DNA of 64,000 nucleotides from the NCBI GenBank assembly GCA_964527555.1, contig CAZGOG010000002.1:41698-105697 (forward strand), written 5' to 3'. The translations under genes and the position numbers were made by a program. The notes below the pieces were generated by a model. That model did not search any database. It saw only the letters and a list, made by a program, of their open reading frames with translations, and was not told the origin of the DNA. This stretch comes from an uncultured Planctomycetia bacterium (GTDB lineage Bacteria; Omnitrophota; Gorgyraeia; Tantalellales; Tantalellaceae). Shown here piece by piece: positions 1,616-40,961 of the stretch (the stretch's first letter is position 1; each line of letters starts with the position of its first letter).

Positions 1616-2881
1616 TTATTCTTTCACTCTTTTGACTTTCGCGCCTACCGCTGAAAGCTTCCGTTCGATATGCTCATAACCCCTGTCGAGGTGATAAATC
1701 CTTGAGATTTCTGTGCGGCCCTCCGCCACCAGTCCCGCCAGGACCAACGCGGCAGAAGCCCTCAGATCCGAAGCCATAACCGGTGCCCCGCTGAGGCGTT
1801 TAACGCCCCTTATGATCGCGGTGGAACCTTCCAGTATGATATCCGCGCCCATCCTGTTAAGCTCGCTTATGTGGATGAATCTTTCCGGATATATCTTCTC
1901 AGTAATAACACTTATGCCGCTGCAAAGGGTAAAAAGACTCATCATCTGCGCCTGAAGATCCGTCGGGAAGCCCGGATACGTCAGGGTCGTGACATCCGTG
2001 GGCAGGATCTTGCCGGTCTTTCTGTATACTTCGACCCCTCCGGGGCGTTCCTCGACCATGCCGCCGGAATCCTCCAGCTTATCAATAAGCGCAAGATTAT
2101 GCGCCAGATCCGCATTCTCGAGGAAGAGCCTGCTTCCCGTCAAGACGGCCGCTATCATGTAAGTACCCGATTCGATCCTGTCGGGGATGACCGTGTGGCG
2201 AGCCCCCTCAAGGCGCTTAACACCGCGCACTCTGAGTGTAGGAGTGCCGGCGCCCTCTATGTCCGCCCCCATCTTACGCAAGAAGTTCACCAGGTCCGTG
2301 ATCTCCGGTTCACACGCGGCATCTTCTATCACGCTCTGGCCTTCGGCCAGGACCGCTGCCATAAGCGTATTGGCCGTGGCAAGCACGCTTGAGCCGAAAT
2401 GCCCGCCCAGGTATATCCGCGCGCCTTTTAGTTTTTTGGCGCTGGCGACTATATATCCCTCTTCAATGCGTATATCCGCACCCAGTGCACGCAGACCCTT
2501 AAGATGCAGGTCAATGGGCCTGGGCCCTATTACGCATCCTCCCGGAAAAGAGACCTTGGCCTCTTTATACCTTGCAAGAAGCGGCCCCAGAACCGCTATA
2601 GAAGCGCGCATGGTGCTCACCAGCTCATATGCGGCGGTAACGTTCTTGACCTCACCCGGAGATATCCTTACTCCGCTGTTTTCTTTTTTTATGCCGCGGC
2701 CGAACTCCCCGAGGAGTTTTATCATGGTGGAAACGTCTTTTAGGTCCGGCACGTTTGAGATACTGCACTCCTCATCGGTAAGCAGGGTCGCCGCCAGGAT
2801 CGGCAGGCAAGCGTTTTTCGCCCCGCTTATGCGTACGGTACCGGTAAGTTTCCTCCCGCCCTCAATGATAAGCTTATCCAT
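1616..2881 (-). CDS. murA: UDP-N-acetylglucosamine 1-carboxyvinyltransferase
   Basis: 421 aa. MDKLIIEGGRKLTGTVRISGAKNACLPILAATLL is the MurA/EPT-family N-terminus, and length is appropriate. Confidence 0.9.
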   Translation of the reverse strand: MDKLIIEGGRKLTGTVRISGAKNACLPILAATLLTDEECSISNVPDLKDVSTMIKLLGEFGRGIKKENSGVRISPGEVKNVTAAYELVSTMRASIAVLGPLLARYKEAKVSFPGGCVIGPRPIDLHLKGLRALGADIRIEEGYIVASAKKLKGARIYLGGHFGSSVLATANTLMAAVLAEGQSVIEDAACEPEITDLVNFLRKMGADIEGAGTPTLRVRGVKRLEGARHTVIPDRIESGTYMIAAVLTGSRLFLENADLAHNLALIDKLEDSGGMVEERPGGVEVYRKTGKILPTDVTTLTYPGFPTDLQAQMMSLFTLCSGISVITEKIYPERFIHISELNRMGADIILEGSTAIIRGVKRLSGAPVMASDLRASAALVLAGLVAEGRTEISRIYHLDRGYEHIERKLSAVGAKVKRVKE

Positions 2882-5274: not shown

Positions 5275-6555
5275 CTAGCTTTTACCCATATTCTGAAGGA
5301 ATTCCTTGTTCGTCTTGGATTTACCCAGACGGTCCAGAAGCAGTTGCATCGCTTCCACAGAATCAAGATCGCTTAGAGCCTTGCGCATAAGCCATATTTT
5401 CTTGAGTTCGTCTTCTTCGACAAGCAGCTCTTCTTTTCGCGTATTCGAGCGCTTTATGTCTATCGCCGGATAGATCCTGCGCTGGAAAAGGTTCCTGTCA
5501 AGCTGGATCTCCATGTTGCCGGTACCCTTGAACTCTTCGAATATGACCTCGTCCATGCGGCTGCCGGTATCGACCAAAGCGGTGGCGATTATCGTGAGGC
5601 TCCCCCCCTCCTCCACGTTACGCGCTGAACCGAAGAAACGTTTGGGCTTATGAAGGGCGTTTGCGTCCACTCCGCCGGAAAGTATCTTGCCCGAATGCGG
5701 CACGACGGTATTATACGCACGCGCCAGGCGCGTTATCGAATCAAGCAGTATGACAACGTCGTATTTGTGTTCCACAAGCCGTTTTGCTTTTTTAAGCACC
5801 ATCTCGGCGACCTGGGTATGCCGCTGCGCCTGTTCATCAAAAGTCGAAGCCACCACTTCCGCCTTTACCGAACGCTGCATGTCGGTAACCTCTTCCGGGC
5901 GCTCATCGATAAGCAGTATTATGAGCTTGACCTCGGGATAGTTTGTCGTGATGCTGTTGGCGAACTTCTGAAGGAAGACCGTCTTGCCGCTATAGGGAGG
6001 CGCGACTATCATCCCCCTTTGCCCTTTACCCACGGGTGTAAGAAGATCCATCACGCGCATGGATATCTCCTTGGGGTCCGTCTCCAGGGCAAAACGTTCG
6101 TCAGGGTACAGCGGCGTCAGGTTCTCGAAAAGTATCTTGTTCTTCGTGACCTCCGGGTTCTCAAAGTTCACAGCCTCTACCTTTAAAAGGGCAAAATAGC
6201 GTTCACCCTCTTTCGGGGGACGGATCTGGCCGCTAACCGTATCACCCGTCTTAAGATTAAACCGGCGTATCTGCGAGGGTGAGACGTAGATGTCGTCCGG
6301 GCACGGCAGGTAACTGTAATCGGGACTTCTTAAAAACCCGAATCCGTCCTCCAGCACCTCGAGCACACCTTCCCCGTATGCCAGGCCGTCTTTCTCGATC
6401 TTCGCCTGCAGGATCTTAAAAATAAGATCGTGCTTCTTCATGCCGCTCATACCGTTGATCTTAAGCGTCTTGGCAAGCTCCGTAAGCTCGGCGATCTTCA
6501 TGTTCTTCAGTTTTACGATGTCTAGCTCTTTCTCTCTTTTTGCACGTTTTTCCAT
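5275..6555 (-). CDS. rho: Transcription termination factor Rho
   Basis: 426 aa. N-terminal [16 protein letters not shown] (Rho_N), RNA-binding cold-shock-like domain, RecA-type ATPase with Walker A (APPYSGKT). The start may be the internal Met at ~6501 rather than 6555 (the latter overlaps coaE by 34 nt). Confidence 0.9.
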
Positions 6556-7121
6556 ATCTCTTCGACTCCTTTTTTTATTTTTTCTAGACCACTATCGTTA
6601 TCTATGACATAATCGGCGAATTTTGCTTTCTCGCTAAGAGGCAGCTGCTCTTCTATAATACGCTTAGCCTCCTCGCTTGAGATCCCCCGATTCTTTGCCC
6701 TTTTTATCTGAGTGCCCGCAGAACTTCTCACGACAACCACGATGTCCACATAATCATGCAAGTTCGTTTCAACCAGCAGCGGCGCATCGATGACAACCAC
6801 GGGACTATTCGACCCGGCGGTTTCTTCCTTGATCCGGCGGATGATCTCAGGATGCATTATGCCGGAAAGCTTCTTTAGTTTTTCTTTGTCTGAGAAAACC
6901 TTCCCGGCAAGTTTCTTTCTGTCTATTTTGCTTCCGGTGAGGATCTCCCTGCCGAATAGATCCAGGACTTTTGCGATTATCCGCTCATCTTCCTCCAAAA
7001 GCTTATGAGCGATGCCGTCAGCGTCTATCTTAAAAGCGCCTTTGGATGCGAACATATCGCTTGCGGTAGTCTTGCCCGTGGCCAGGGCCCCCGTTACTCC
7101 GATGATTATTTTTTTCTTCAT
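6522..7121 (-). CDS. coaE: Dephospho-CoA kinase
   Basis: 199 aa. [20 protein letters not shown]-loop at the N-terminus, typical CoaE size. Confidence 0.85.
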
Positions 7122-7132
7122 ACCAGGTCTCC

Positions 7133-9769
7133 CTACAGCGCCACTTCTTCCAGGTCCAGCCAGTTCCTGCCCGCCTCAACATCCACTTTAAGAGGGACCT
7201 TAAGCTCGATAACGCCTTCCATGAGTCTTTTCACTTTTTCGCTGGCTTCTTCCAGCATCTCTAGAGGCAGCTTAAAGACAAGCTCATCGTGCACCTGTAT
7301 GATCGTTTTCACTCCGGAAGCCTTAAACTCCTTATCGCAAGCTATCATCGCAAGTTTTATGAGATCCGCCGCCGAACCCTGCACGGGCGTGTTGACCGCG
7401 ACTCTTTCGGCAAAACCTTTTACGTGTTCGTTTGAGGCGTTTATCTCAGGGATATACCTTCTCCTTTTTAATAGCGTCGTGACAAAACCTTTTTTCCTGG
7501 CGGAAGCGATCGTCTTCGTTATAAAAGACTTCACCCCGCTGTATCGTTTGAAATAAGCGTCGATGAAGCCTTGCGCTTCTTCGGCGCTTATGCCTAAGTC
7601 TTTTGCCAGGCCGAAAGCGCTCATGCCGTAAGCTATCCCGAAATTAACCGTCTTGGCCACCGAACGCATCTTATCGGTCACTTCCGCAAGCTTACAGCCG
7701 TATATCTCACTCGCGGTTGAGCGGTGCACATCCTCTCCTTTTTTAAAAGCCGATATCAAACGCTTGTCATCCGCCAGGTGCGCCAGAATCCTGAGCTCCA
7801 CCTGGGAATAGTCCGCCGCAAGAAGCACCATGCCTTTCCCGCCGGGTATAAACGCGCGCCTGACCTCTTTGCCCAGTTTCGTTTTTATGGGGATATTCTG
7901 CAGGTTCGGCTCGCTCGAGGAAAGCCTGCCCGTTGCGGTGACCGCCTGGTTGAAATGGGCATGCAGCGTGTGAGTGCCCTCATCCACCAGGTTCAGTATC
8001 GAATCATAATAAGTGCTTTTAAGTTTGCTTATCTCGCGGTACTCCAGAAGCACCGCGGGCAGTTCATGCACTTCCGTCAGCCGGCGGAGAACCGACTCAT
8101 CGGTCGAGGCGCCCGTCTTTGTCTTTTTCGTCACGGCAAGGCCCAGTTTCTCATACAGAATGACCTGGAGCTGCTTGGGTGAATTTATATTGAATTCTTC
8201 TCCGGCAAGTTTATATATCCGTGAGGATATTTCCTCCAGCTCTTTCTCCATGGCTTTGGAGCGCGTCTCGAGGTACTTGATGTCGATGCCCACGCCTTCA
8301 GCCTCCATATCGGCAAGGATACCGGCAAGCGGCATCTCGACGTCCCTGAAAAGAGGTTTGAGATGCTTCTCGTCAAGCTGCGGCTCTAACACGTTATACA
8401 GTCTCTCTATTATATCGCTTCTTTCACACGCATGAAGGGCTTCTTTGACGCCTGAGAAGTCCATCTCGGCCTGGCCGCTCGCGCCCCAGCCGACTGCCCC
8501 GGTATCCTCCGAAAGGCTGTATCCAAGCTGACGCATCGCTATCGATTCCAGGTCGTATTTCCCGCGCGAGGGATCGATAAGGTAATCGGCTATCATCACG
8601 TCGAACGAGACGCCTTTAATATCGATACCGCGCTTGCGTAAAGCGAGTATATCGTTTTTTATGTCATGCCCCCTCTTCTGGAGGGTATCATCTTCAAGAA
8701 CGCCTTTAATTATAGGCAGGAGTTCTTTGTTCATCGGGATAAAGTAAGCTAACCTCTCATCGCAGGAAAACGCAATCCCGTTTATGTCGGAGTCCGCGAA
8801 AGAGACGCTCATCGAAACCTTCTTACCCCTCGACATCTCTTTTACGGCTTCTTCTACTTCTTTGGGTTTCTTTTTTACGGCGTATTTAGTCTCCTCCCTC
8901 TCTATAGTAGAGATCTCCTTTAAAAGCTTCTGGAACTCGAATTCCTTAAAGAGTTCCTTCAGGCGGTCCGTATCGGCTTCGCCTAAATGCGCCTCATCGA
9001 TATCCATATCCACATCCACTTCCATGTCCAGCTGTGCGAGCTGGCGGCTGAGCTCTGCCATCTCTTTGCCTTCGATGAGTTTTTTCTTTGTCGCTTCTGA
9101 AGCGATTCTATCGACATTCTCATAAACACCCTTAAGCGAACCGTACTCTTGGATAAGTTTGGCAGCGGTGACCTTGCCGATACCTTTCACCCCGGGTATA
9201 TTATCGGTCGTATCCCCTATAAGAGCCATAAGGTCTACCATCTTAGAGGGAGAGACCCCGTACTTCTCCTCGACGCTTTTCGCGTCATACAGTTTATCAC
9301 CCATCGGGTGCGGCGAAAGAACCTTGGTCTTTTCATCCACGAGCTGCAGGGCGTCTTTATCCCCGGTGACTATCGTCACCAGAAAACCCTTCTTCTTAGC
9401 CTCTTTGGTCAAAGTCGCGATAATATCATCCGCTTCATACCCCTCTTTCTCGCATACGGGGATCCTGTACGCTTCGACCAGCTCTTTGATCCTGGGGATC
9501 TGGCTGATAAGGTCGTCCGGCATCACCGGACGGTGCACCTTGTACTCTTTATACTTTTTATGCCTGACTGTCGGCCCTTTCACGTCAAAAGCTACGGCCA
9601 GCATGTCGGGTTGATATTCCCGGATAAGCTTACGCAATATGTTTAAAAAACCGTATATCGCATTGGTGGGCATGCCCTTGGAGGTACTCAGCTCGCGTAT
9701 AGCGTAGTACGCCCGATAGCAAAGCGAATGTCCGTCTACAAGGTAAATATTTTTACTTTTCTTGCTCAT
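7133..9769 (-). CDS. polA: DNA polymerase I (5'-3' exonuclease + 3'-5' exonuclease + polymerase domains)
   Basis: 878 aa. N-terminal 5'-nuclease (YLVDGHSLCYRAYYA), a central 3'-5' exo-like region, and family-A polymerase motifs (DYSQVELRILAHL, VHDELVF). Confidence 0.95.
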   Translation of the reverse strand: MSKKSKNIYLVDGHSLCYRAYYAIRELSTSKGMPTNAIYGFLNILRKLIREYQPDMLAVAFDVKGPTVRHKKYKEYKVHRPVMPDDLISQIPRIKELVEAYRIPVCEKEGYEADDIIATLTKEAKKKGFLVTIVTGDKDALQLVDEKTKVLSPHPMGDKLYDAKSVEEKYGVSPSKMVDLMALIGDTTDNIPGVKGIGKVTAAKLIQEYGSLKGVYENVDRIASEATKKKLIEGKEMAELSRQLAQLDMEVDVDMDIDEAHLGEADTDRLKELFKEFEFQKLLKEISTIEREETKYAVKKKPKEVEEAVKEMSRGKKVSMSVSFADSDINGIAFSCDERLAYFIPMNKELLPIIKGVLEDDTLQKRGHDIKNDILALRKRGIDIKGVSFDVMIADYLIDPSRGKYDLESIAMRQLGYSLSEDTGAVGWGASGQAEMDFSGVKEALHACERSDIIERLYNVLEPQLDEKHLKPLFRDVEMPLAGILADMEAEGVGIDIKYLETRSKAMEKELEEISSRIYKLAGEEFNINSPKQLQVILYEKLGLAVTKKTKTGASTDESVLRRLTEVHELPAVLLEYREISKLKSTYYDSILNLVDEGTHTLHAHFNQAVTATGRLSSSEPNLQNIPIKTKLGKEVRRAFIPGGKGMVLLAADYSQVELRILAHLADDKRLISAFKKGEDVHRSTASEIYGCKLAEVTDKMRSVAKTVNFGIAYGMSAFGLAKDLGISAEEAQGFIDAYFKRYSGVKSFITKTIASARKKGFVTTLLKRRRYIPEINASNEHVKGFAERVAVNTPVQGSAADLIKLAMIACDKEFKASGVKTIIQVHDELVFKLPLEMLEEASEKVKRLMEGVIELKVPLKVDVEAGRNWLDLEEVAL

Positions 9770-10034
9770 GCGTTAATCGGAATAATAAATGGCCGGCCTT
9801 TTCGAGTAGCTTTAAAGGGAATGGGAATATGCATTTCTTTCTATGGCTATAAAATAAACATACAATCCGAGTATACTTTTGCGTTTTGTGTAAGGAAATA
9901 CTTTTGGCGAGTTTTATAATCCTCTTTATTATAATATTTTCTAATATTATGTCAAGCAAACTTTAAAGAAATAACACGAAACTCCATGGCCCCTTAAAAG
10001 CAGCTCTAAAAAGGCCCCTAAAAGAGGCGCATGA

Positions 10035-10400
10035 TTAGAAACGAAAAATCACAATCAAAAGCAGCGCAATAAGCACCGCTGAAACCACATAGAAATCACT
10101 GAAGTAGAAAAAATCGGCAATCTTGTCGATGAAGGTGTCCCTCGACCTCTTCGTGTCCATCACTTCAAGCCGCTCTTTGGGGCGCTTAGGCGTCTGGACG
10201 ACAGGCGCTTTATCCTTGCTGCTGATACGGGAATCTATTTCTGAGCGTATGGCGTCGATCTGATCCCGCCTGAAACGCAAAAGCTCTCCGCCGAGCTTGT
10301 ACGCTACGATCACTTTCCTCTCGACAAGGTCGATTATTTTCTCTTCACTGATCCCTAAATAGTCGGACAGCTCCTGTAAAGTAAGCAGCTTCTCGGGCAT
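10035..10400 (-). CDS. Excisionase-family (HTH_17-like) DNA-binding protein with C-terminal transmembrane anchor
   Basis: 121 aa. N-terminal LTLQELSDYLGISEEKIIDLVERKVIVAYKLGGELLRFRRDQIDAI resembles excisionase/MerR-superfamily HTH. C-terminal FYFSDFYVVSAVLIALLLIVIF is a hydrophobic helix. Family assignment from motif memory only. Confidence 0.55.
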   Translation of the reverse strand: MPEKLLTLQELSDYLGISEEKIIDLVERKVIVAYKLGGELLRFRRDQIDAIRSEIDSRISSKDKAPVVQTPKRPKERLEVMDTKRSRDTFIDKIADFFYFSDFYVVSAVLIALLLIVIFRF

Positions 10401-10401
10401 A

Positions 10402-10962
10402 TTACGCCTTTACTTTGCCGTCCGCCACCCACTGGTCCACCTTGGACCTTTCAAACATCCATTCGCCGCCGTTCCTGGTGCCCGGAAGCATGCCGTTATT
10501 GACCCACTCGTTTACCTTGTGTGATTCGACTTCCAGGTATTCAGCAAGCTGATTTGCCGTCATCCAGTCACCCCTGGATGCGGAACCCGCGGATGGGTTC
10601 ATACCCTTCATGCGCAGCTGCCCGTTTATAAAAGCACCTTCCGATATGGAAATCCTGGGCGTTTCGACATCACCGTTAAGTTTTGCGCTTGCATCCAGCT
10701 TCAAAGTTTTGGTGGCCTTTATGTTGCCGTTTACAACGCCTGCGATCGAGATGGTCTCGCCGGTTATATCCGCTTTTATGTCGGCTTTCTCCCCGATCAT
10801 GAGAACACCCTTGGCATCCAGCTTACCCTCGAATCTGCCGCTTATCCTCAAGTTTACAGGATCATCGAAACGCAAGGTACCCTGCATGGTGGCGTTTACG
10901 TCCAGCACCTTCTCTTCTGGCTTACTCTGTACTACTACTTCTTCAGGTTTCCGTTTTCTCAT
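10402..10962 (-). CDS. Bactofilin (DUF583 polymer-forming domain) fused to C-terminal excisionase-type HTH
   Basis: 186 aa. Residues ~25-125 (LRISGRFEGKLDAKGVLMIGEKADIKADITGETISIAGVVNGNIKA...ETPRISISEGAFINGQLRM) match the bactofilin beta-helical repeat pattern. C-terminal WMTANQLAEYLEVESHKVNEWVNNGMLPGTRNGGEWMFERSKVDQWV resembles the HTH of the downstream gene 10035..10400. Confidence 0.6.
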   Translation of the reverse strand: MRKRKPEEVVVQSKPEEKVLDVNATMQGTLRFDDPVNLRISGRFEGKLDAKGVLMIGEKADIKADITGETISIAGVVNGNIKATKTLKLDASAKLNGDVETPRISISEGAFINGQLRMKGMNPSAGSASRGDWMTANQLAEYLEVESHKVNEWVNNGMLPGTRNGGEWMFERSKVDQWVADGKVKA

Positions 10963-11005
10963 CGCGCCCTCCTTTTTCTCTTAAAAAGTTCATTTGTCTT
11001 TTCTA

Positions 11006-11665
11006 TCATCCCCATTTTACGCGTTCTACTCCCGCTAAAGACGAAATCTCAGAAACGATGTCTTTTTCATAAATACGCGGGACTAAAAGATCGAAAGCAA
11101 AATCTTCCTTAGTCCTGGTATCGTCCTTCTCGGACGAGACCCTTTTTATCCTGCCACCGCAAGACTCAATGGCATTCTTTATATCATCGGCGCTAGTACC
11201 CATATTGACGCTCATCCTGATGAGGAGTTTCTTGCCGCGCCGTTTGAGCGCCATCCGCTCTTCCAGCCGCGAAAGAATAAGGACTACAAGCACTACACCG
11301 GTGGCAATCCCGGCCGCTTCATACATACCGGCGCCCACAGCCAGCCCGATCGCGGAGACCGCCCATATACTCGCGGCGGTCGTCAGGCCCCTGACAGAGG
11401 CACCATACCTTATTATAGCACCTGCTCCCAAAAATCCAATACCTGTTACGACCCCGGCGGCTATCCTCGAAGGGTCGGCTTCACCTATATCCCCGTAACT
11501 GGCGGCGATCAGTATAGAAGTTATCATAAAAAGAGTCGACCCCACACAGACCAGTATATGAGTCCTGAGCCCCGCGGCGCAGCCGTGTATCTCGCGTTCC
11601 ATACCGATAATCGCGCTTAGAACCGCCGATATCACCAGTCTCAGAAAAATGATCGCACTTGGCAT
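11006..11665 (-). CDS. mgtC: MgtC/SapB-family membrane protein
   Basis: 219 aa. N-terminal multi-TM region with GMEREIHGCAAGLRTHILVCVGSTLFM (MgtC signature) plus a C-terminal ACT-like soluble domain. Confidence 0.8.
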   Translation of the reverse strand: MPSAIIFLRLVISAVLSAIIGMEREIHGCAAGLRTHILVCVGSTLFMITSILIAASYGDIGEADPSRIAAGVVTGIGFLGAGAIIRYGASVRGLTTAASIWAVSAIGLAVGAGMYEAAGIATGVVLVVLILSRLEERMALKRRGKKLLIRMSVNMGTSADDIKNAIESCGGRIKRVSSEKDDTRTKEDFAFDLLVPRIYEKDIVSEISSLAGVERVKWG

Positions 11666-11694
11666 ACCCTTCCTCCTTCTTTAACTTGCCCTTT

Positions 11695-12705
11695 CTAGAA
11701 CGAGCCTGCTTTAGCGTTTAAAAAAAGATCTGACTCCTCTCCGCCGGTGAAAAGTTTTTCGCCCAGTATCGCGATCATCGCCGCGTTATCAGTGCAGTAT
11801 TCTTTTTTGGGAAGATAAAGCTCTATACCTTCGCGTTTTTTAAGCGCCAGGAGTCTCGCTCTGAGAGCTCCGTTACTCGTGACTCCGCCTCCCACAGCAA
11901 GCCTTTTAACCTTCGCAAAACGCATGGCTCTTAAGATCTTCTCCTCGATCACGTCTATGACAGCCTGCTGGAAAGAAAAAGAGATCCTGTCCTTCTCTCT
12001 TTCGGTCTTTTCCGAATCCTTCCAGTAATACATGACAGCAGTCTTAAGCCCGCTGAAACTGAAATCAAGGTCCGTTTCATCCTTAAGAAGGGCCCTCGGG
12101 AAATCTATAACGCCTTCTCCGGTAAACCTGGAAGCCCTTTCCTCCACGATAGGCCCGCCCGGGTATCCCAGATCAAGCATCTTGGCTACTTTATCAAAAG
12201 CCTCGCCCACCGCGTCGTCTTTCGTCCTACCTATAATATCAAATTTTTTCAAAGAATGGCAGATATATATGCTGGTGTGCCCGCCGGAGACCACCACACC
12301 CACAAAAGGGAATTTCCCCTTCAACTCACCGAGAGCCTCTCCTCCAAGAAAACAGGATAGAATATGACCGTAGAGGTGGTTCACGCCGATTATGGGCACC
12401 CGCCTTGCAAAACTGATCGCCTTGGCAAAAGCTATGCCTACAAGGAGGGATCCAGGCAGGCCCGGACCCTCGGTAACCGCCACCAGGTTAATATCTTCCG
12501 TGCATACCTTCGCGTCCTTCAAAGCTTTTTCCATGACTGAAAAAATATATTCGGCATGGAACCGCGAGGCTATTTCGGGGACAACTCCGCCGTAGTCCGA
12601 ATGAAGATGAACGCTTGAAGATACTTCGCTGGAAAGCACCCTGCCGTCTTCCACCACGGCTACCGCTGTCTCGTCACAGGAAGTCTCAATACCAAGAGTT
12701 TTCAT
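11695..12705 (-). CDS. tsaD: tRNA N6-adenosine threonylcarbamoyltransferase
   Basis: 336 aa. MKTLGIETSCDETAVAVV and GVVPEIASRFH, metal-binding HxxH region. Kae1/YgjD family. Confidence 0.9.
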   Translation of the reverse strand: MKTLGIETSCDETAVAVVEDGRVLSSEVSSSVHLHSDYGGVVPEIASRFHAEYIFSVMEKALKDAKVCTEDINLVAVTEGPGLPGSLLVGIAFAKAISFARRVPIIGVNHLYGHILSCFLGGEALGELKGKFPFVGVVVSGGHTSIYICHSLKKFDIIGRTKDDAVGEAFDKVAKMLDLGYPGGPIVEERASRFTGEGVIDFPRALLKDETDLDFSFSGLKTAVMYYWKDSEKTEREKDRISFSFQQAVIDVIEEKILRAMRFAKVKRLAVGGGVTSNGALRARLLALKKREGIELYLPKKEYCTDNAAMIAILGEKLFTGGEESDLFLNAKAGSF

Positions 12706-12718
12706 CTTTTTTAATCTT

Positions 12719-13573
12719 CTACTCTCTGTAATTTATTATTTCAGATAAACTGGCAAAATATATACCGCGCTCCTTCATGCCGGGGACGACTTCTTTAAGG
12801 ATACTGATCGTCAAGCTGCGGTCATGACCGATCCCGAGGGCTTTGCCCTTGACTGAAGCAATTCTTTCCAGCTCCTTAAGCTGCCCTTTTATATATTCTC
12901 CGTCGCTTCTATTATCGATAAATATATCCCGTCTGACATAGGGCACCTCCAGCTCTCGGGCGATATCCTCGCACACCGACTCTTCCGTCGTAAAAGAATC
13001 CAGGAAAAACGCATCTCTTTCCTTAAGGTCCTCCAGGACAAGTTCCATGAGATGCGCATCTTTAGTCGCTTTTGAACCCATATGGTTAGACACCCCTATA
13101 GCCGCCGGCACTGAGCGAAAATCATTGGCGATGATGTCCTTAACAAGCCCCTCATCCATTGCACAGCTGATAGTATCCTCTTCCAGGTACGGGGTCTCCC
13201 CTTCCGGCTCCATGGGTAGATGCAAAATGACTTCTGTACCGTTTTCTCTAGCGAAAGAGCATACCGCCCCGGCATAAGGCGTGTTCGGAAGCACCGCGAC
13301 CGTTATGCTTGCGTCTACCTCTTTGAGCGCATCCAGGTTTTTCTTGGAATATCCGAAATCATCCAGCACGATGACAACCGTGGACCTCGCACGAGACTCT
13401 TCAGGCAAGCTTTCCTCGGGCACTTCGGGATGCGAAAGAGGCGCACTCAGCGGAACTTCCTTTTCTGTGACAATCTTTCCCGCTTCTCTGGAGCGGAAGT
13501 TAATCAGCAAGACAACGCCCGCCGCCAGGACAAGCGCTATTACTAGTGCAAATCGGCGACTCACTATTCCCAC
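12719..13573 (-). CDS. Divergent polysaccharide deacetylase (YibQ family)
   Basis: 284 aa. Signal/TM N-terminus followed by VVIVLDDFGYS...HLPMEPEG...SNHMGSKAT, characteristic of the YibQ/DUF610 family. Confidence 0.75.
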   Translation of the reverse strand: MGIVSRRFALVIALVLAAGVVLLINFRSREAGKIVTEKEVPLSAPLSHPEVPEESLPEESRARSTVVIVLDDFGYSKKNLDALKEVDASITVAVLPNTPYAGAVCSFARENGTEVILHLPMEPEGETPYLEEDTISCAMDEGLVKDIIANDFRSVPAAIGVSNHMGSKATKDAHLMELVLEDLKERDAFFLDSFTTEESVCEDIARELEVPYVRRDIFIDNRSDGEYIKGQLKELERIASVKGKALGIGHDRSLTISILKEVVPGMKERGIYFASLSEIINYRE

Positions 13574-13594
13574 TTTCTAAAGCCAGACAACATC

Positions 13595-14923
13595 TTAGTC
13601 CGATTTTTTCTGCTGGACGGTCGCCCCTTCGGCCGAATCAGAGGCTCTATATTCCTCAAAAACCCTTATCCCCTTAAGGATACTTACTGCCGCCTGTATC
13701 TGGTTGTCGTACTCTTTGGCTTTCTCTTCGCTCTTCTCTTTTTTGGGCTTTTCGACCTTCGCGAAAATGCCGGTTTTCTTTTCTTCCTTCTCTTCCTTCT
13801 CTTCTTTCACTTCGGGCTCGTTTGCTTTGACCCTTTTCACGCATACGTCCGGATCGACACCTTTATCCATTATATTCTTACCCGAAGGAGTAAAATAAGC
13901 CGCGGTCGTAAGACGTAAGGCTGATTTGTCTTCAAGCGGGATCACTGTCTGTACGGAAGCTTTGCCGAACGTGGTCACCCCCAGCATTAAAGCGCGCCTG
14001 TTGTCTTTCAGCGCACCCGCCAGAATCTCCGCGGCACTGGCGGAACCCTTGTTGACTAAGACGACAATATCCATATCGTCGAAATCGGGTTCCTTCTTTG
14101 ATTTAAAATCTATCCTCTTCTTGGGGTCGCGCCCTTCCGTATAGACTATCATGTCGCCCTGCTTGAGGAAAAGATCCGCCACTTCCACGCCGGCGTCAAG
14201 AAGCCCCCCGGGATTGTTGCGGATATCTATAATAAGACTTTTTGCCCCTTCCTTGCGGAGTTTCTTTATGGTTTCTCTTAAGTCTTTCGCGGTTCTTTCC
14301 TGGAACTCGATAAGTCTGACGTAACCTATATCCTCTTCGATGACTTCCGCGTCCTTAATGCTTTTAACCTTGATAATGGCGCGCGTTATCTTAAAATCCA
14401 GCATCTCTTCGGTCTCTTCGCGGACAACGGTTATAGTAACAGCCGTACCCGCCTCGCCTCGGAGTTTCCCGACTGCCTCGTCCAGCGTCATATCCCGTGT
14501 GACTTCATCGTCTATTTTTACGATCCTGTCGCCCGCTTCCACCCCCGCCTCATATGCGGGCGTGTCTTCCATCGGCGCAATAACGGTAAGCACTCCGTCG
14601 CGCATGCCTACCTCTATACCGAGTCCGCCAAACTCGCCTTTCGTCTCTTCCGTGATCTCCTTGAAGCTTTCAGGATCCAGAAACTGGCTATAACCGTCGA
14701 GTGTCTTCATCATCCCTTTTATAGCGCCGTACACCAGGTCCTTGACCTTTACCGGTTTCACGTAATCGGTGCTTATAAGGGTTATGGAATCGGCGAGAAG
14801 CTGCACCTGTCTGAAGAGTTCCTTGCCATTGTCGATGATGTCGCCTTCCTCCGCGCGGCTTATAAAGACAGAGAAAACCATAACTGACGCCAGTATCACT
14901 CCAACAAAAAATTTAACTTTCAT
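13595..14923 (-). CDS. ctpA: Carboxyl-terminal processing protease (S41 family, PDZ domain)
   Basis: 442 aa. Signal peptide, PDZ (GGLGIEVGMRDGVLTVIAPMEDTPAYEAGVEAGDRIVKIDD), S41 catalytic region (LIIDIRNNPGGLL ... GSASAAEILAGAL), and a K/E-rich C-terminal tail. Confidence 0.85.
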   Translation of the reverse strand: MKVKFFVGVILASVMVFSVFISRAEEGDIIDNGKELFRQVQLLADSITLISTDYVKPVKVKDLVYGAIKGMMKTLDGYSQFLDPESFKEITEETKGEFGGLGIEVGMRDGVLTVIAPMEDTPAYEAGVEAGDRIVKIDDEVTRDMTLDEAVGKLRGEAGTAVTITVVREETEEMLDFKITRAIIKVKSIKDAEVIEEDIGYVRLIEFQERTAKDLRETIKKLRKEGAKSLIIDIRNNPGGLLDAGVEVADLFLKQGDMIVYTEGRDPKKRIDFKSKKEPDFDDMDIVVLVNKGSASAAEILAGALKDNRRALMLGVTTFGKASVQTVIPLEDKSALRLTTAAYFTPSGKNIMDKGVDPDVCVKRVKANEPEVKEEKEEKEEKKTGIFAKVEKPKKEKSEEKAKEYDNQIQAAVSILKGIRVFEEYRASDSAEGATVQQKKSD

Positions 14924-14953
14924 AAAATTATCTCCCCCTGTATTTTTATCCTC

Positions 14954-16393
14954 TTATGCTTCAAGTCTTTTTCTGAGCATCTCTCCGGCAAGTTTCGGGT
15001 TTGCTTTGCCTTTGGTCTTCTTCATCACCTGCCCCACAAGAAAAGCCAGAGCGTTAGCCTTACCGCCTCTAAAATCATTCGCACCCTTTTCGTTCTCTTT
15101 GATCACTTCATCGACTGCGCTATTAAGCGCTCCTTCGTCGGAGACCTGCTCAAGAGCCTTTTCCCTGACGATCACACCGGGAGCCTTGCCGGTCTCGATG
15201 GAGGCGGTCAGCACCTCTTTGCCCGAAAGCCCGCTTATAACACCGCTATCGACCATCTTTATCAGCTCCGCCAGGTCATGCGCGCTGATGCCGAGCGCCT
15301 TTACGCCGGCACTGCGTTCCTTGATATGCCGCATTATCTCGCCCTTTATCCAGTTGCATACGACCTGGGGTTTATTAAAATGCCCTAAGGTCTCCTCGTA
15401 AAAATCCGCTATATCCCTCTCGGAAACAAGCGCCTCTACGTCTTTCGCGGATAACTTGTACGTTTCACTGAAGCGCTTCTGCTTCTTTTGCGGGCCTTCC
15501 GGCATGCTTGCGCGCACTTCTTCCACTAAAGAGGCGCTTACCTCGAAAGGGACGAGATCCGGCTCCGGAAAATACCGGTAATCCTGGGCTTCTTCTTTCC
15601 TCCTCATCGAAAGCGTAACCATCTTCTTTTCGTCCCAGAGACGCGTCTCCTGGATTATTTCTTCGCCGCTATCAAGCGCCTCCCGCTGGCGCTCCTGTTC
15701 AAAGCCAAGAGCGTCCCTCACAGCTTTAAAGGAGTTCAGGTTCTTTATCTCCACTTTGCTGCCGAACTTTTTCTCGCCCTTTTTCCTGAGCGAGATATTG
15801 GCATCGCATCTTAAACTGCCTTCCTCCATATTGCAATCCGATACGTCCAGGTACTTTATTATCTGCTTTATCGTGGTTAGATATGTATACGCCTCTTCCG
15901 GAGTGCGTAAGTCCGGTTCCGAGACGATCTCAAGCAGCGGCGTGCCCGTACGGTTCAGGTCCACATAACTAAACGGCGCTCTCTCGTCATGAATAAGCTT
16001 GCCCGCATCCTCCTCCATATGCGCGCGCGTAATCCCTATGTCTTTCAACCCGCCATCTTCAGCGGTTATCGTAACTTTGCCGTTATACGCGAGCGGCATG
16101 TCGTACTGGCTTATCTGATAGTTCTTGGGCAGGTCCGGATAATAATAGTTTTTCCGGTCGAATTTGACCGTTTTCTGGATGTCACAATCGAGCGCGATCG
16201 CGACTTTTATCGCGTACTCGAAAGCTTTCCTGTTAAGAACGGGAAGCACCCCCGGCAGGCCCAGGCACACGGGGCAAACCTCTGTATTAGGCTCCGCGCC
16301 GAAGATGAGGCTGCATCCGCAAAAAGCCTTAGTCTTTGTCGAAAGCTGCAGGTGCACTTCAAGTCCTATTACTGTCTCGTATTTTCCGTTCAT
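14954..16393 (-). CDS. gatB: Asp-tRNA(Asn)/Glu-tRNA(Gln) amidotransferase subunit B
   Basis: 479 aa. YETVIGLEVHLQLSTKTKAFCGC N-terminus plus C-terminal GatB/YqeY domain. Sits in a gatC-gatA-gatB operon. Confidence 0.95.
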   Translation of the reverse strand: MNGKYETVIGLEVHLQLSTKTKAFCGCSLIFGAEPNTEVCPVCLGLPGVLPVLNRKAFEYAIKVAIALDCDIQKTVKFDRKNYYYPDLPKNYQISQYDMPLAYNGKVTITAEDGGLKDIGITRAHMEEDAGKLIHDERAPFSYVDLNRTGTPLLEIVSEPDLRTPEEAYTYLTTIKQIIKYLDVSDCNMEEGSLRCDANISLRKKGEKKFGSKVEIKNLNSFKAVRDALGFEQERQREALDSGEEIIQETRLWDEKKMVTLSMRRKEEAQDYRYFPEPDLVPFEVSASLVEEVRASMPEGPQKKQKRFSETYKLSAKDVEALVSERDIADFYEETLGHFNKPQVVCNWIKGEIMRHIKERSAGVKALGISAHDLAELIKMVDSGVISGLSGKEVLTASIETGKAPGVIVREKALEQVSDEGALNSAVDEVIKENEKGANDFRGGKANALAFLVGQVMKKTKGKANPKLAGEMLRKRLEA

Positions 16394-16398
16394 CTCAT

Positions 16399-17859
16399 CT
16401 AACCGCTTTTCTTCTGGCCCGAAAACATCTTATGATGGTCGGTTGCCCTTTCAAAGGCATGTGCCGCTTTTATAAGTGTCTCTTCATTAAAGGGTGAAGC
16501 CATAAGCTGCAGGCCCACCGGAAGATCGTTCTCGCCCATACCGCAGGGTATGGAGACAGCGGGAAGCCCCGCAAGGTTTGCCGGTATGGTAAAAATGTCT
16601 GAAAGGTACATCTTAAGCGGATCGTCCGTCCTCTCTCCGATCTTAAAAGCAGTCGTCGGCGAGGTAGGCGTCAGTATACAGTCGCAGGATTTAAACGCTT
16701 CACGGAAATCATCCGAGATCTTGGTGCGGACTTTCTGCGCCTTGAGGTAATACTCTTCATAATAGCCGCTGCTTAAAGAATACGTCCCCAGAAGTATCCT
16801 TCTTTTAGCCTCCTCTCCGAAACCCTCGTTCCTCGTGGCGATATACATCTCTATGAGACTGACGGCTTTACCGGACCTGTAGCCGTAATGCACGCCGTCA
16901 TACCGTGCGAGATTGGAACTGGCTTCGGCTGGAGCTATGATGTAATAACAGCTTACCGCGTATTTTGTATGCGGAAGGGATATACGGGTCGTCCTGGCGC
17001 CGAGCTTTTTAAAAACGTCAATAGCCCCGTCAATGCGGCTTTTCACGCCCGCATCTATACCCGGAGGAAAATACTCGCTTGGTATACCGATCGTAAGACC
17101 CTTTATATCCTTGTTGAGGCTCTCCGTATAGCGTGGAACGCTTCTGTTAACGGAGGTTGAATCTTTTTCGTCATAGCCGGATATGACTTCAAGGATAGAC
17201 GCGCAGTCAGAGACGTTGCGTGTTATCGGCCCTATCTGGTCGAGACTGGAAGCAAACGCGATCAAACCATAACGTGAGACGCGGCCGTAAGTGGGCTTAA
17301 GCCCTACAACGCCGCACATGGAAGCGGGCTGCCTGATCGAGCCTCCCGTGTCAGATCCCAGTGCCGCCACCACCTCACCCGCCGCAACAGCCGCCGCCGA
17401 ACCGCCGCTGGAGCCGCCCGGGATGCGCCCGGTATCCCACGGGTTGTGTGTAGGCCCGTAATAAGAAGTCTCACAGGAAGAGCCGAAAGCAAACTCGTCC
17501 ATATTGGCCCCGCCGATTATAAGCGCCTTTTCCTTTTCCAGTTTTTCGATAACTGTCGCGTTGTACGGCGGACGAAAGCCCTCAAGCACATGCGAAGCGC
17601 ACGTGGTAAGCTCCCCTTTTATGCAGATATTGTTCTTGATAGCTATGGGGACGCCCCGGAGTAAACCCCGGCGGCCGGCTTTATCGAGATTTTGCGCCCG
17701 CTTTATAACGTTTTTGGAGTCAAGACAGGCAAAAGCCTTGATTTTCTTGTCGATAACGGCGATCCTGTCCGTTAAAGCGCGCGCAGTATCAGCCAGCGGC
17801 TCTTTGCGTTCTTCCAGCCATCTTTTAAAATCGCTTATGCTTGAAGATATATCTTCCAT
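16399..17859 (-). CDS. gatA: Glutamyl-tRNA(Gln) amidotransferase subunit A
   Basis: 486 aa. Amidase signature [15 protein letters not shown]. Adjacent to gatC and gatB. Confidence 0.95.
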
Positions 17860-17860
17860 A

Positions 17861-18178
17861 TCAGGCGTCTTCTATTATCTTGGGGACTTTAAAGAAACCG
17901 TCTTTCCTTGCAGGCGCATTGCTCAGGGCTTCTTCCGTCGGAAGAGGCTCTGCCGGTTCGTCTTCACGGAATACGTTTTTCATGGACGTAAGAACATGTG
18001 TAGTCGGAAGGGTGCCTTCGGTGTCGACTTCGCCCAGCTGCGCTATATACTCCAGGATCTGCGAAAGCTGCCCCCTGAACTTCACAAGGTCTTCTTCCTT
18101 GAGGCTCAGGCGCGCAAGTCTTGCAACGTACCTGACGAGATCCTCTGTGATCGCTGTTTTTTTGTCGGCGTGCTCCAT
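17861..18178 (-). CDS. gatC: Glutamyl-tRNA(Gln) amidotransferase subunit C
   Basis: 105 aa. LARLSLKEEDL ... typical GatC, immediately upstream of gatA. Confidence 0.85.
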   Translation of the reverse strand: MEHADKKTAITEDLVRYVARLARLSLKEEDLVKFRGQLSQILEYIAQLGEVDTEGTLPTTHVLTSMKNVFREDEPAEPLPTEEALSNAPARKDGFFKVPKIIEDA

Positions 18179-18234
18179 ATTGCCATTACCCTAACATAAT
18201 AATAAATGAAAGTCAATATTACATATATGCTAAA

Positions 18235-19092
18235 TCATGCTTTTCGCCCCGCGAAACGCTCACCTGCCGCATCAGAAACCCTGGCGTAATCCTCCAGAGA
18301 AAGTGATTCCGCGCGGCTTGCCGGATCGATACCGCAGCTCTCGAACAATCTTATCCAGTCGTCTCTTGTCATCGAGGCGAAATCTCCCTGCGAAAGGGGG
18401 TTGACGGCTTTTTTCCTTCTTTGGGAAAAAGCCTTGCGCACGATCCTGAACATGAGAGCCTCATCCGTGACTTTTACGCTTGGCTCACTCAGCACCTTAA
18501 GCTCAACTAGATGCGAGTCTACCCGGGGTCTGGGATAAAAGGAGTTCTTCTTGATCCTAAAGAGTTTTTTCACCTCCATATAAAACTGGACAAAGCAGCT
18601 TATGGACCCGTAAACGCGGCTGCCGCTGGAAGAAGCTATCCGTTCGGCAAGTTCCTCCTGTATCACCAGATAAACCGCATCGATACATTTCCTCTGGCGG
18701 ATCATCTTCTCGATCACGGGAGTTGATATGTAGTACGGGATGTTCCCGAAAACCGTCAAAGCCCCGCTATCTTTCGCCAGAGCGCATATATCGACATCCA
18801 GGATGCTCGCTTCGATAAGCGTTATATCCTTCTCTCTAAAGCGTTCAGCCATTATCCCGCATATTCGCCTGTCCTTCTCAACCGCAAAGAGCTTCCCGCA
18901 CATGGCGGCAAGCTCGAACGACATGACGCCGAAACCCGCTCCTATCTCGAGGACTCTCTTTGAAGAGTCGACGCAAAGCGCCTTTAAGATATTGTCTCTT
19001 ACGTTTTTATCGATCAGAAAGTTCTGGCCCAGTTTCTTGTTGGGACGGAAATCTTCCTCTCGCCATAACGCTTTAAGTTCTTTTAAGTCCAT
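18235..19092 (-). CDS. rsmA: 16S rRNA (adenine1518/1519-N6)-dimethyltransferase
   Basis: ORF 18235..19122 trimmed to the internal Met (MDLKELKALW...). The first 10 codons of the long ORF lie inside repeat copy A. KKLGQNFLID and EIGAGFGVMS motifs (KsgA/RsmA). Confidence 0.85.
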   Translation of the reverse strand: MDLKELKALWREEDFRPNKKLGQNFLIDKNVRDNILKALCVDSSKRVLEIGAGFGVMSFELAAMCGKLFAVEKDRRICGIMAERFREKDITLIEASILDVDICALAKDSGALTVFGNIPYYISTPVIEKMIRQRKCIDAVYLVIQEELAERIASSSGSRVYGSISCFVQFYMEVKKLFRIKKNSFYPRPRVDSHLVELKVLSEPSVKVTDEALMFRIVRKAFSQRRKKAVNPLSQGDFASMTRDDWIRLFESCGIDPASRAESLSLEDYARVSDAAGERFAGRKA

Positions 19093-19110
19093 GTTTAGAT
19101 TGTCTTTAAC

Positions 19111-19233
19111 GTGAAGCTCCATGGGCTAACGCCCATGGCATCCACAGTTTCAGTCTTTCCGTCAAGCGGAATCCTGCACCGAAGGCCATTCATCCACGCC
19201 CTTACGGGCGTGGCCTTCCGGTGCATGGGCAAA
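19111..19233 (+). repeat. 123-bp structured interspersed repeat, copy A (orientation gtgaagctcc...catgggcaaa)
   Basis: Read directly. Near-identical to 43978..44100 and to the reverse complement of 39128..39250 and 53179..53301. Contains hairpin ccatgggc-taac-gcccatgg and a nested hairpin tgcaccgaaggcc[attcatcc acgccc-ttac-gggcgtgg]ggccttccggtgca. Confidence 0.9.
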
Positions 19234-20238
19234 AAGAGCCCGTGCGGCAAGTTTGATGGCCTGCTTCATAGAACCGGCCCTTGCGATACCCTTGCCGGCT
19301 ATATCAAAAGCAGTGCCGTGATCTGGTGAGGTCCTCACATGCCCCAGTCCCAGTGTCATATTGACACCGGTATCAAAATCCACCATCTTAAAAGGCGCAA
19401 GACACTGGTCATGGTACATGGAAACAACGATATCGATTTTTTTCTCTCTCGCTTTATGAAAGATCACATCCGCCGATATGGGGCCCTGGATATTTTTATA
19501 GACAGCTTTAGCCTTCTCGACCGCCGGCAGTATCATATCGATTTCCTCGGTGCCTATCTTCCCCCCTTCGCCGCAATGCGGATTTAAGGCAGAGACGCCT
19601 ATTACCGCATCCTCCTTGCCGCATATGATCTTGCGGTTTTCAACAACCTGTTTAAGAGTCTCCACGATAAGATCCACACTCAGACTGGAGGCGACTGCCT
19701 TTAAGGGAATGTGGCGCGTTACCGGAGCGACGCATAAAGTCTCTCCGGCAAGGACCATGGTAACGTGCGCAGCGGAATACGCTTCCTGGAGATACTCGGT
19801 ATGCCCTATAAAGCCCGGTTTGATCCTGGCCGTCCTCTCCTTGCTGAGGGGCGCGGTAACCAGTGCTGCGCCCGCCCCGCTTGAAGCCTGCATCAGAGTA
19901 ACGGCGCTGGCCAGCGCATCAAGCGCCTTACGGGCGCCCTCCTCGCTGGGAGTACCCGGAACGGTATTTTTTAAAGGAGTGGTGGGATCAATTATGTTTA
20001 CAGCTTCTTCATCTAAAAGGATCTTTCCGGAGGCGTTGTCATGATGCACCTTGATATTGCCCTCATACACACCGGCTGCGGCCCTTTCCATGACGCCGGA
20101 GTCCCCCACAATGACAAAAACGGCAAGCCCTTTGATTTCGGGGCTTGCCATCGCCTTCATGATCACTTCCGGGCCTATGCCGGAAGGATCTCCCATAGTT
20201 ATAAAAATCTGCGGTTTACTTGTAGGAGATATACGCAT
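19162..20238 (-). CDS. pdxA: 4-hydroxythreonine-4-phosphate dehydrogenase
   Basis: 358 aa. FITMGDPSGIGPEV N-terminus and PdxA family fold. The last ~23 codons and the stop are encoded by repeat copy A. Confidence 0.85.
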   Translation of the reverse strand: MRISPTSKPQIFITMGDPSGIGPEVIMKAMASPEIKGLAVFVIVGDSGVMERAAAGVYEGNIKVHHDNASGKILLDEEAVNIIDPTTPLKNTVPGTPSEEGARKALDALASAVTLMQASSGAGAALVTAPLSKERTARIKPGFIGHTEYLQEAYSAAHVTMVLAGETLCVAPVTRHIPLKAVASSLSVDLIVETLKQVVENRKIICGKEDAVIGVSALNPHCGEGGKIGTEEIDMILPAVEKAKAVYKNIQGPISADVIFHKAREKKIDIVVSMYHDQCLAPFKMVDFDTGVNMTLGLGHVRTSPDHGTAFDIAGKGIARAGSMKQAIKLAARALFAHAPEGHARKGVDEWPSVQDSA

Positions 20239-21181: not shown

Positions 21182-21193
21182 AATATATCCCCC

Positions 21194-40945: not shown

Positions 40946-40961
40946 GATAAAATATTTTAGT

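Follow-up and report, generated by a model that had tools for sequence, protein, structure and literature searches.

A bactofilin fused to a winged helix-turn-helix domain and a tail-anchored partner encoded by a conserved gene pair of Omnitrophota

A 64,000-nt stretch of DNA from an uncultured bacterium (assembly GCA_964527555.1, contig CAZGOG010000002.1, positions 41,698 to 105,697; hereafter called the window) contains two adjoining genes, designated here bacHTH and tmHTH. The first codes for a bactofilin with a domain of the winged helix-turn-helix type (wHTH) fused to its C-terminus, and the second for a small protein composed of a wHTH and a C-terminal transmembrane (TM) helix. The pair is real and conserved, and among scaffolds of a known kind it is a variant that has apparently not been described before. 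Joint action of the two proteins is very likely, since their genes lie 1 nt apart in the window and are adjacent in every related locus. It is possible, with a probability that we place somewhat below one half, that the pair constitutes a conserved two-protein cytoskeletal module of Omnitrophota, and a comparably tentative proposal is that the tail-anchored partner holds the bactofilin polymer at the inner membrane, with the wHTHs acting as coupling modules. The features of the pair, all on the minus strand, are as follows.

10402..10962, minus strand: bacHTH gene, coding for the 186-aa bactofilin–wHTH fusion (open reading frame (ORF) with Pfam and NCBIfam matches; stop codon at 10402-10404)
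10968..10972, minus strand: GGAGG Shine–Dalgarno sequence 5 nt ahead of the bacHTH ATG (read from the sequence)
10609..10908, minus strand: bactofilin β-helix, residues ~19-118 of bacHTH (PF04519, structure prediction with pLDDT >90, Foldseek)
10567..10608, minus strand: flexible linker of ~14 residues, 119-132 of bacHTH, varying in length and sequence among orthologues
10420..10566, minus strand: fused C-terminal MerR/Xis-type wHTH, residues 133-181 of bacHTH, net acidic, Glu152 taking the place of the base-reading Arg
10035..10400, minus strand: tmHTH gene, coding for the 121-aa tail-anchored wHTH protein (ORF and Pfam)
10227..10388, minus strand: partner wHTH, residues 5-58 of tmHTH, cytoplasmic, with a conserved wing G-G-E-x-L-R-F-R-K
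10119..10226, minus strand: disordered net-basic linker, residues 59-94 of tmHTH, a tether of ~35 residues (pLDDT 44-52)
10041..10118, minus strand: juxtamembrane aromatic motif (residues 95-105) running into the single TM helix (~103-120) of tmHTH (predicted helix, Kyte–Doolittle)

The coordinates of both genes and the 1-nt gap between them, as given in a preliminary description of this DNA, are correct: the junction reads TAA-T-ATG, with a single nucleotide (10401) between the stop codon of bacHTH and the start codon of tmHTH. Such spacing is compatible with translational coupling.

The same description had assigned to bacHTH a canonical bactofilin domain followed by an excisionase/MerR-like HTH, and profile searches bear this out with scores above the thresholds. 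PF04519 matches residues 19-116 (E 4.9e-25, 88.1 bits versus a cut-off of 27.9) and covers 96 of the 98 profile positions, while HTH_17 (PF12728) matches residues 133-181 (E 1.5e-9, 38.4 bits versus 27) and TIGR01764 ("excise") scores 37 versus 28.8. In a phmmer comparison with BacA of Caulobacter (2n3d) the E value is 1.4e-4. The AlphaFold2 (AF2) model of bacHTH has a mean predicted local distance difference test score (pLDDT) of 84, exceeding 90 in the predicted β-helix (residues 20-118), which Foldseek superimposes on the bactofilin of Thermus (6rib; TM-score 0.88, root-mean-square deviation (rmsd) 1.6 Å) and on BacA of Caulobacter (2n3d; TM-score 0.80). The linker that follows is modelled with a pLDDT of ~49 (block ~120-130) and has an entropy of 2.75 bits. 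The fused wHTH (pLDDT ~86) has the topology α1-α2-β1-β2-α3 according to DSSP run on the model, and its fold matches are the BldC–DNA complexes 6ama/6amk (rmsd 1.1-1.2 Å over 49 residues), and further RacA–DNA 5i44, Pukovnik Xis 4j2n, NmlR, and CbpM. F130 of BacA, whose replacement in the F130R variant makes the protein polymerisation-deficient (PMC12448750), belongs, like F105 of the Thermus protein, to the hydrophobic interface for end-to-end polymerisation and aligns with Ile112 of bacHTH within a conserved G-A-[FV]-[IL]-N-G motif, a comparison confined to this single interface residue. The most conserved segment of bacHTH comprises turns 1-2 of the β-helix (residues 18-56, window 10795..10911, LDVNASMQGTLRFDDPVNLRINGKFEGTLDTKG), with a top-residue frequency of 0.84 versus 0.57 for the fused HTH.

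tmHTH had been described as an adjoining gene for a protein with a similar HTH and a C-terminal TM helix, and this also stands. HTH_17 matches its residues 5-50 (PF12728, E 6e-9, 36.5 bits versus 27) and TIGR01764 scores 38.2 versus 28.8. The AF2 model (pLDDT 68) consists of a wHTH (residues 5-58), a disordered segment (62-89), and one continuous helix (90-120). The wHTH has the topology α1-α2-β1-β2-α3 (DSSP on the model) and its fold matches are Pukovnik Xis 4j2n, BldC, CbpM, RacA, and pSK1 Par. The wHTHs of the two proteins are related (98% in an hhalign profile–profile comparison, 24% identity), which in terms of sequence makes them paralogous. The linker of tmHTH has a mean net charge of +2.8 and an entropy of 2.64 bits. 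The TM segment reaches 2.68 on a 19-residue Kyte–Doolittle window starting at residue 103; a hydrophobic tail is present in all 79 orthologues (79/79 with a score of at least 1.71, the threshold being 1.6), in which the best 19-residue hydrophobic window ends 0-8 residues short of the C-terminus. The basic flank of a TM helix stays cytoplasmic according to the positive-inside rule, so the basic linker preceding the helix places the partner wHTH in the cytoplasm. The juxtamembrane motif A-D-F-F-Y-F-[NS]-D-F-Y (10086..10118) is the most conserved part of tmHTH (top-residue frequency 0.76 versus 0.63 for the HTH), and D96, Y99, F100, D102, F103, and Y104 are invariant in our alignment (A2). When the tail motif was sought in other proteins, no candidate had three 5-residue words in common with it.

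In canonical bactofilins the N-terminal peptide MFSKQAKS targets the protein to the membrane, with F2 and K4/K7 being essential, and membrane binding and polymerisation are interdependent (PMC12448750). A peptide of the MFSK type is absent from the sampled bacHTH orthologues, whose N-termini read MRKRK, MARRR, or MVKKK followed by acidic residues, without Phe2, nor was a hydrophobic segment found in them (maximum Kyte–Doolittle score 1.67). It is this lack of the canonical membrane-targeting peptide in the main clades of the fusion that suggests the partner as the membrane anchor.

bacHTH has 419 homologues in a set of 5.8 billion proteins. The best 120 of these 419 are 57-100% identical to it and ~180-200 aa long, all but one contain both Pfam domains, and the names given among them are those of Omnitrophota/Omnitrophica or candidatus genera (Makaraimicrobium, Tantalella). 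When 1.84 billion cluster representatives were scanned exhaustively with HMMER, there were 12,126 matches at the level of the bactofilin domain, of which only 21 were below 1e-30; ca. 30 representatives match bacHTH across both domains, and the named ones are Omnitrophota or "PVC group". For tmHTH there are 216 homologues, and all the organism names given are Omnitrophota/Omnitrophica. A scan of one genome per GTDB species confirmed 92 loci, of which 80 were fetched; the peptide patterns used in that scan are family-specific, so it shows breadth among relatives and not absence elsewhere. Where the records of these loci name a phylum it is Omnitrophota; the titles of the remaining metagenome-assembled genomes (MAGs) read "uncultured Planctomycetia" or "uncultured bacterium". 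The locus occurs in many MAGs with the title "uncultured Planctomycetia bacterium" (binchicken and SRP co-assemblies; L001, L003, L004, L009, and others). Their protein identity to the window is 60-72% in one clade, the closer, and 42-51% in the second, and their synteny is that of the MAGs labelled Omnitrophota; these titles look like placeholder taxonomy.

The co-occurrence of the fusion with the TM-HTH partner, a survey of which had been suggested earlier, is complete in this sample: tmHTH directly follows bacHTH in 80/80 loci, with the identical 1-nt spacing in 35/79. The same holds for the most distant two-domain member, P0160 (locus L081, 31% identity), where mgtC and bacHTH are followed by a gene for a 105-aa HTH_17 protein ending in DFFYFNSFYI and a TM helix. 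No other paralogues of bacHTH or tmHTH were found in the 64-kb window. The pipeline names of the proteins are "polymer-forming cytoskeletal protein" or "helix-turn-helix domain-containing protein" at NCBI and "excisionase family DNA binding protein" at JGI, and the NCBIfam and Pfam libraries searched contain no curated equivalog for either protein. Full-text literature searches found no paper on a bactofilin–HTH fusion, on the pair, or on bactofilins in Omnitrophota, in agreement with the earlier remark that no characterised fusion of this kind is known. The one match for Omnitrophica is unrelated, and a fusion is described in none of the listed titles and abstracts on bactofilins and helix-turn-helix proteins.

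DNA binding by the fused HTH had been assumed in the preliminary description, and it is on this point that the sequences raise doubts. The positions contacting DNA in the BldC–DNA and RacA–DNA structures (PMC5859096, PMC4914108) were mapped onto 81 fused and 80 partner sequences. The base-reading arginine (R30 of BldC, equivalent to R19 of RacA) is replaced by an acidic residue in 80 of the 81 fused wHTHs (Glu in 63, Asp in 17, Arg in one), while in the partner wHTH the position is occupied by Asp/Glu in 41, Ser in 16, Ala in four, and Arg in four of the 80 sequences. Of the wing arginines, R48 is deleted in 81/81 fused wHTHs and present (as R42) in 80/80 partners, and R50 is replaced by Asp/Glu in 77/81 fused wHTHs and kept as Arg/Lys in 68/80 partners. 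The position of BldC K33 is taken by N/S/E/D in the fused wHTH and by D/E/N in the partner, and that of RacA Lys15 is variable in the former and K/E/D in the latter. The mean net charge is −2.6 for the fused wHTH, +0.1 for the partner wHTH, and ~+5 (our own count) for the BldC domain. Among RacA homologues Arg19 is reported to be "completely conserved" and Lys15 conserved (PMC4914108), while in RocS a single Asp introduced into the wing by the phosphomimetic substitution T41D abolishes DNA binding (PMC11500499). The conserved acidic residues found where RacA and BldC use arginines suggest that the fused wHTH no longer reads DNA, and the strict conservation of an acidic residue at the exposed side of helix 2 argues for selection for something other than DNA. 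The sequence thus argues against a canonical mode of DNA binding by the fused wHTH, and a DNA-binding role of this domain is doubtful. L077 (JAFGGP010000035.1) is the sole orthologue whose fused HTH has Arg at the position that reads bases (IVRWAE). The partner in L077 has an atypical wing (LRCKK), and this locus may represent a lineage with different binding properties.

In the arrangement that we propose, the bactofilin would polymerise beneath the cytoplasmic membrane and the partner would supply the membrane anchor for the polymer. The ability to read DNA would be lost in the fused wHTH, and the wHTHs would act mainly as protein–protein couplers, joining HTH to HTH or HTH to polymer, the HTH–HTH contact possibly taking the form of a BldC-like head-to-tail heterodimer. 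The basic wing retained by the partner is the reason for which such an assembly could additionally touch the nucleoid. The strong conservation of turns 1-2 of the β-helix and of the juxtamembrane motif points to these segments as possible interaction surfaces. Mutual information between the two proteins, calculated for 80 pairs, is highest for column pairs joining the "head" of the fusion (BldC R22/A32) with the "tail" of the partner (BldC S39/I40/L43), but the phylogeny is still in this signal and the pairs are to be taken as a lead only. An envelope or division role for the scaffold is our guess. Examples that may serve by analogy as precedents for DNA-binding folds acting as adaptors are the HTH of RodZ, which binds the MreB filament and not DNA (PMC13584716), CorR of a repurposed chromosomal ParMR system, which recruits CorM filaments to the membrane (bioRxiv 10.1101/2025.06.27.661541), CbpM, present among the fold matches, which binds CbpA (PDB 3ucs), and BacR, which binds the bactofilins BacE/BacF and sits at the membrane via them (PMC13649987).

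Several points weigh against this arrangement. The contact between the two HTHs is one that we purely infer, and by far most members of the wHTH fold family bind DNA. The two proteins may instead touch at other places, since the most conserved surfaces of the two proteins, the β-helix turns and the juxtamembrane motif, are not the HTHs. The covariation is confounded by phylogeny, as 220 of 1892 column pairs exceed all within-clade shuffles where ca. 6 are expected. In the fused wHTH, K149 (74/81), W153 (80/81), and R/K163 (74/81) are retained at sites of contact with the DNA backbone in BldC and RacA, and a polymer displaying an array of many weak sites could still bind DNA. The wing of the partner, with its Arg or Lys at both of the positions given above, is basic. 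Arg is found at the base-reading position in the distant member L081 and likewise in one partner subclade (alignment A2, by eye). The fusion of that distant locus (P0160, L081 882..1439) begins with MFKRKPK, resembling the canonical membrane-targeting peptide MFSK; set against the MRKRK and MARRR of the main clades, this may mean that the peptide was lost after the TM partner took over anchoring. Outside P0160 the basic N-terminus of bacHTH may itself give some membrane affinity.

Part of this evidence belongs equally to the explanation that survives best beside the membrane-anchored bactofilin, in which one or both wHTHs would bind DNA, the polymer would provide multivalency, and the TM partner would anchor the whole, the membrane, polymer, and nucleoid being tethered together for chromosome anchoring or segregation. 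We consider it somewhat less likely than the arrangement proposed above. In fold and profile comparisons both HTHs match DNA-bound architectural proteins best (RacA 5i41/5i44, BldC 6ama/6amk, Pukovnik Xis 4j2n, pSK1 Par 8csh), and RacA, RocS, and Par share the logic of a wHTH combined with an oligomeriser and an anchor (PMC11500499, PMC4914108). The basic wing and linker of the partner, the backbone-contacting residues retained in the fused HTH, and the avidity of a polymer, which could compensate for weak sites, would all fit such a tether, and a core role in the cell cycle is suggested by the conservation of the pair beside housekeeping genes in all the related loci. Its weakness lies in the base-reading position, acidic in nearly all the fused HTHs and variable in the partner, in the net acidic charge and acidic wing of the fused HTH, which have to be viewed in the light of the loss of binding caused by one negative wing charge in RocS, and in the neighbourhood of the locus, where no repeated candidate binding site was found, the local repeat being a two-copy element within a terminator-like stem in an unconserved spacer. 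Of the tethering of DNA to the envelope or to a filament put forward in the preliminary description, the general logic is one known from RacA–DivIVA, RocS, and pSK1 Par, whereas canonical binding is what the sequence of the fused HTH argues against. In its fullest form, with the bactofilin binding DNA via its built-in wHTH array and constituting with its partner a nucleotide-independent apparatus for chromosome anchoring or segregation common to Omnitrophota, that is, a polymer-based counterpart of RacA–DivIVA or RocS with the scaffold and the DNA binder in one polypeptide, the proposal appears unlikely. The tethering and adaptor explanations overlap, as binding to the fused wHTH and binding to DNA could be combined in the partner.

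A third explanation, which we consider quite improbable, is a regulatory switch of the BacR type, with wHTH transcription factors sequestered on the polymer or the membrane and freed by envelope stress or by proteolysis, e.g., by CtpA, in order to regulate the operon or other genes. It has a model in the MerR-like HTH protein BacR of B. subtilis, which is encoded with bactofilins and recruited to the membrane, has its DNA binding lowered by them, and relocates to the nucleoid upon vancomycin treatment (PMC13649987). The partner is built like a membrane-tethered transcription factor, and ctpA, coding for an S41 protease, is kept upstream in nearly all the loci (see below). Nevertheless, neither protein resembles BacR at the level of DUF4004, the recognition helices are acidic or variable, and no promoter or operator region of its own precedes the pair, there being only 43 nt between mgtC and bacHTH. 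A wHTH covalently fused to a polymer cannot be released without cleavage, and the linker in which this would have to occur is cytoplasmic, whereas CtpA-type proteases are generally extracytoplasmic.

The chance adjacency of two excisionases or MADS MAD1-like components as a remnant of a mobile element or a defence system is scarcely conceivable and effectively refuted by the strict ctpA–tsaD–mgtC synteny across the related loci, for although both proteins pass TIGR01764 and match NF047737 (antiphage_MADS1; E 4.4e-11 and 1.4e-8), the latter scores (42.8 and 34.8 bits) are far under the 80-bit cut-off and reflect generic HTH_17 similarity, no tRNA gene is present at window positions 1-30000, neither a compositional break nor, in the Pfam scan of the flanking genes (5275..25783), an integrase was found, and the HTHs are fused to a cytoskeletal domain and to a TM anchor.

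The pair is located, as had been stated, between polA and mgtC/tsaD, which was confirmed by the ORFs and Pfam (polA 7133..9769, tsaD 11695..12705); the gene order is rho, coaE, polA, tmHTH, bacHTH, mgtC, tsaD, a gene for a YibQ-like deacetylase, ctpA, gatB, gatA. Three features flank the module.

11006..11665, minus strand: mgtC, the conserved upstream neighbour (PF02308, 8e-38)
9985..10033, minus strand: terminator-like stem-loop directly past the tmHTH stop codon (scan match 10028..10014), with both copies of the direct repeat inside
9928..9955, minus strand: sigma-70 consensus promoter TTGACA-16-TATAAT, 12/12 (promoter scan), outside the module

The gap between mgtC and bacHTH is 43 nt long and a promoter scan showed no promoter-like site in it; the two genes are probably in one transcript. 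Among the related loci mgtC lies directly upstream of the pair in 64/72 and also in L081, tsaD is present upstream in 62/64, and ctpA in 55/57. The recurrent adjacency of a gene for an MgtC-family membrane protein to the bactofilin pair is an unexplained association. Downstream of the pair polA is found in 32/56 loci; the other downstream genes vary, coding for PDZ and HAMP proteins in L001 and for proteins with AIRC and Ni_insertion domains in L050 (LarB/LarC-like by our own reading of the sequences), while L081 has an AIRC gene there.

The spacer separating tmHTH from polA (9770..10034) had been described as 265 bp of AT-rich sequence, and both its length and a dip in G+C content to ~41%, versus ~50% around it, were found. 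The AT-richness is due, in our explanation, to the polA promoter, since the 12/12 sigma-70 sequence presumably serves that gene. TTGAC...TATAAT-like elements were seen by eye past tmHTH also in relatives with polA directly next to it (L008, L015, L038, L041). The stem-loop has a predicted RNA folding energy of −22.1 kcal/mol (z −1.96). A direct repeat reported earlier at ~9981..10013 does exist, slightly offset, as two 11-nt copies with 91% identity (9988-9998 and 10013-10023). Considered as a protein-binding array it was rejected: there are only two copies, placed within the terminator-like stem, the number of matches is within chance (one exact match to the 13-mer pattern was found, and at least one occurs in 24 of 100 shuffles), and the sequence past tmHTH is not conserved in the relatives.

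Regarding the remaining part of the 64-kb window, all the sizeable ORFs whose family was checked are on the minus strand and the GC skew is uniformly negative over 6-15 kb, which fits a long co-directional stretch on one replichore. An Mfd-like protein is encoded at 22151..24055 (minus strand; UvrB_inter, CarD_TRCF_RID, DEAD, Helicase_C), with its 634 aa being short for a transcription-repair coupling factor. Between obg/proB and the RNase E/G gene, two large consecutive ORFs on the minus strand (31209..32381 and 32394..34679), of 390 and 761 aa, lack any Pfam match at E up to 1e-5. A type IV pilus cluster lies within 37403..51564 (minus strand) and comprises genes for a secretin, PilM, a TPR protein, PilC, two tandem PilB-like ATPases (570 and 578 aa), and a PilT-like ATPase; it is followed by a gene for a HAMP-GGDEF protein and then by the elongasome genes rodA–PBP2–mreB (55068..60313). 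There are two genes of the EPSP_synthase family (MurA/AroA-type), at 1616..2881 and 60486..61781 (minus strand), which may be murA and aroA or else duplicates.

Bactofilins are widespread scaffolds whose attachment to membranes and clients is only now emerging, and fusions of folded domains to them seldom receive attention. Should the wHTHs be adaptors, the pair would represent a new mode of bactofilin anchoring and a further case in which a DNA-binding fold has been co-opted for cytoskeletal coupling; should they bind DNA, it would comprise the first bactofilin wired directly to the nucleoid. In either case the cell biology of the uncultured phylum Omnitrophota would become more accessible. 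With 186 and 121 aa the proteins are small, so their heterologous expression is expected to be easy.

When compared with known systems, bacHTH belongs by profile and fold to the bactofilin family, and both proteins to the HTH_17 family, while the pair falls outside the DUF4004/BacR, RodZ, and MADS-MAD1 families. The HTH of RodZ is of the XRE/Cro-type class, unlike that of tmHTH, which scores as HTH_17. In its organisation RodZ resembles tmHTH: an N-terminal HTH in the cytoplasm is followed by a basic juxtamembrane region and a single TM helix (PMC13584716). RodZ differs in possessing a periplasmic domain, whereas tmHTH ends 0-8 residues past its best hydrophobic window, and in its filament partner. 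BacR (YhbD, DUF4004) is an HTH protein genetically linked to the bactofilins BacE/BacF, which it binds and by which it is held at the membrane, its N-terminal HTH motif being the authors' prediction (PMC13649987); it is, however, a separate soluble protein of ~210 aa from Bacillota, while the HTH of the Omnitrophota pair is of the HTH_17 type and fused to the bactofilin, with a second copy anchored by a TM helix, and neither bacHTH nor tmHTH matches DUF4004 (PF13171) at E up to 1.

RacA–DivIVA, RocS, and pSK1 Par have a wHTH of the same fold class and combine it with a flexible linker, an oligomeriser, and an anchor (PMC4914108, PMC11500499). RacA is anchored by DivIVA and RocS by an amphipathic helix, and multivalency is provided in RacA, RocS, and pSK1 Par by a coiled coil (PMC11500499, PMC4914108). 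In the Omnitrophota pair the parts are non-homologous, with the bactofilin β-helix in place of the coiled coil and a TM helix on a second protein as the anchor. Moreover, the HTH of bacHTH is C-terminal, the domain order being reversed, and at the positions of Lys15 and Arg19 of RacA it has a variable residue and Glu, respectively. As these residues, the domain order, and the parts all differ, bacHTH is not a RacA/RocS homologue in the narrow sense. The closest solved folds to the fused wHTH are the small wHTH proteins of the BldC/Xis type, which assemble head-to-tail (PMC5859096). The BldC "head" residues F21/V23/W31 correspond in the fusion to conserved L/V/W. BldC itself, a protein of 68 aa that occurs free, has a DNA face that is strongly basic, in contrast to the fused HTH, which is acidic and lacks R30, R48, and R50.

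With the canonical bactofilins, BacA of Caulobacter, TtBac of Thermus, and BacNOP of Myxococcus, bacHTH shares the Pfam domain, the predicted β-helix, and a hydrophobic residue at the position of BacA F130. In its main clades it is devoid of the MFSK-type N-terminal peptide, and where the C-terminal tail is usually disordered it has a folded wHTH. BacNOP are reported to reach DNA only indirectly, through PadC and ParB (PMC5703909), whereas in bacHTH a fold of the DNA-binding type is built into the bactofilin itself.

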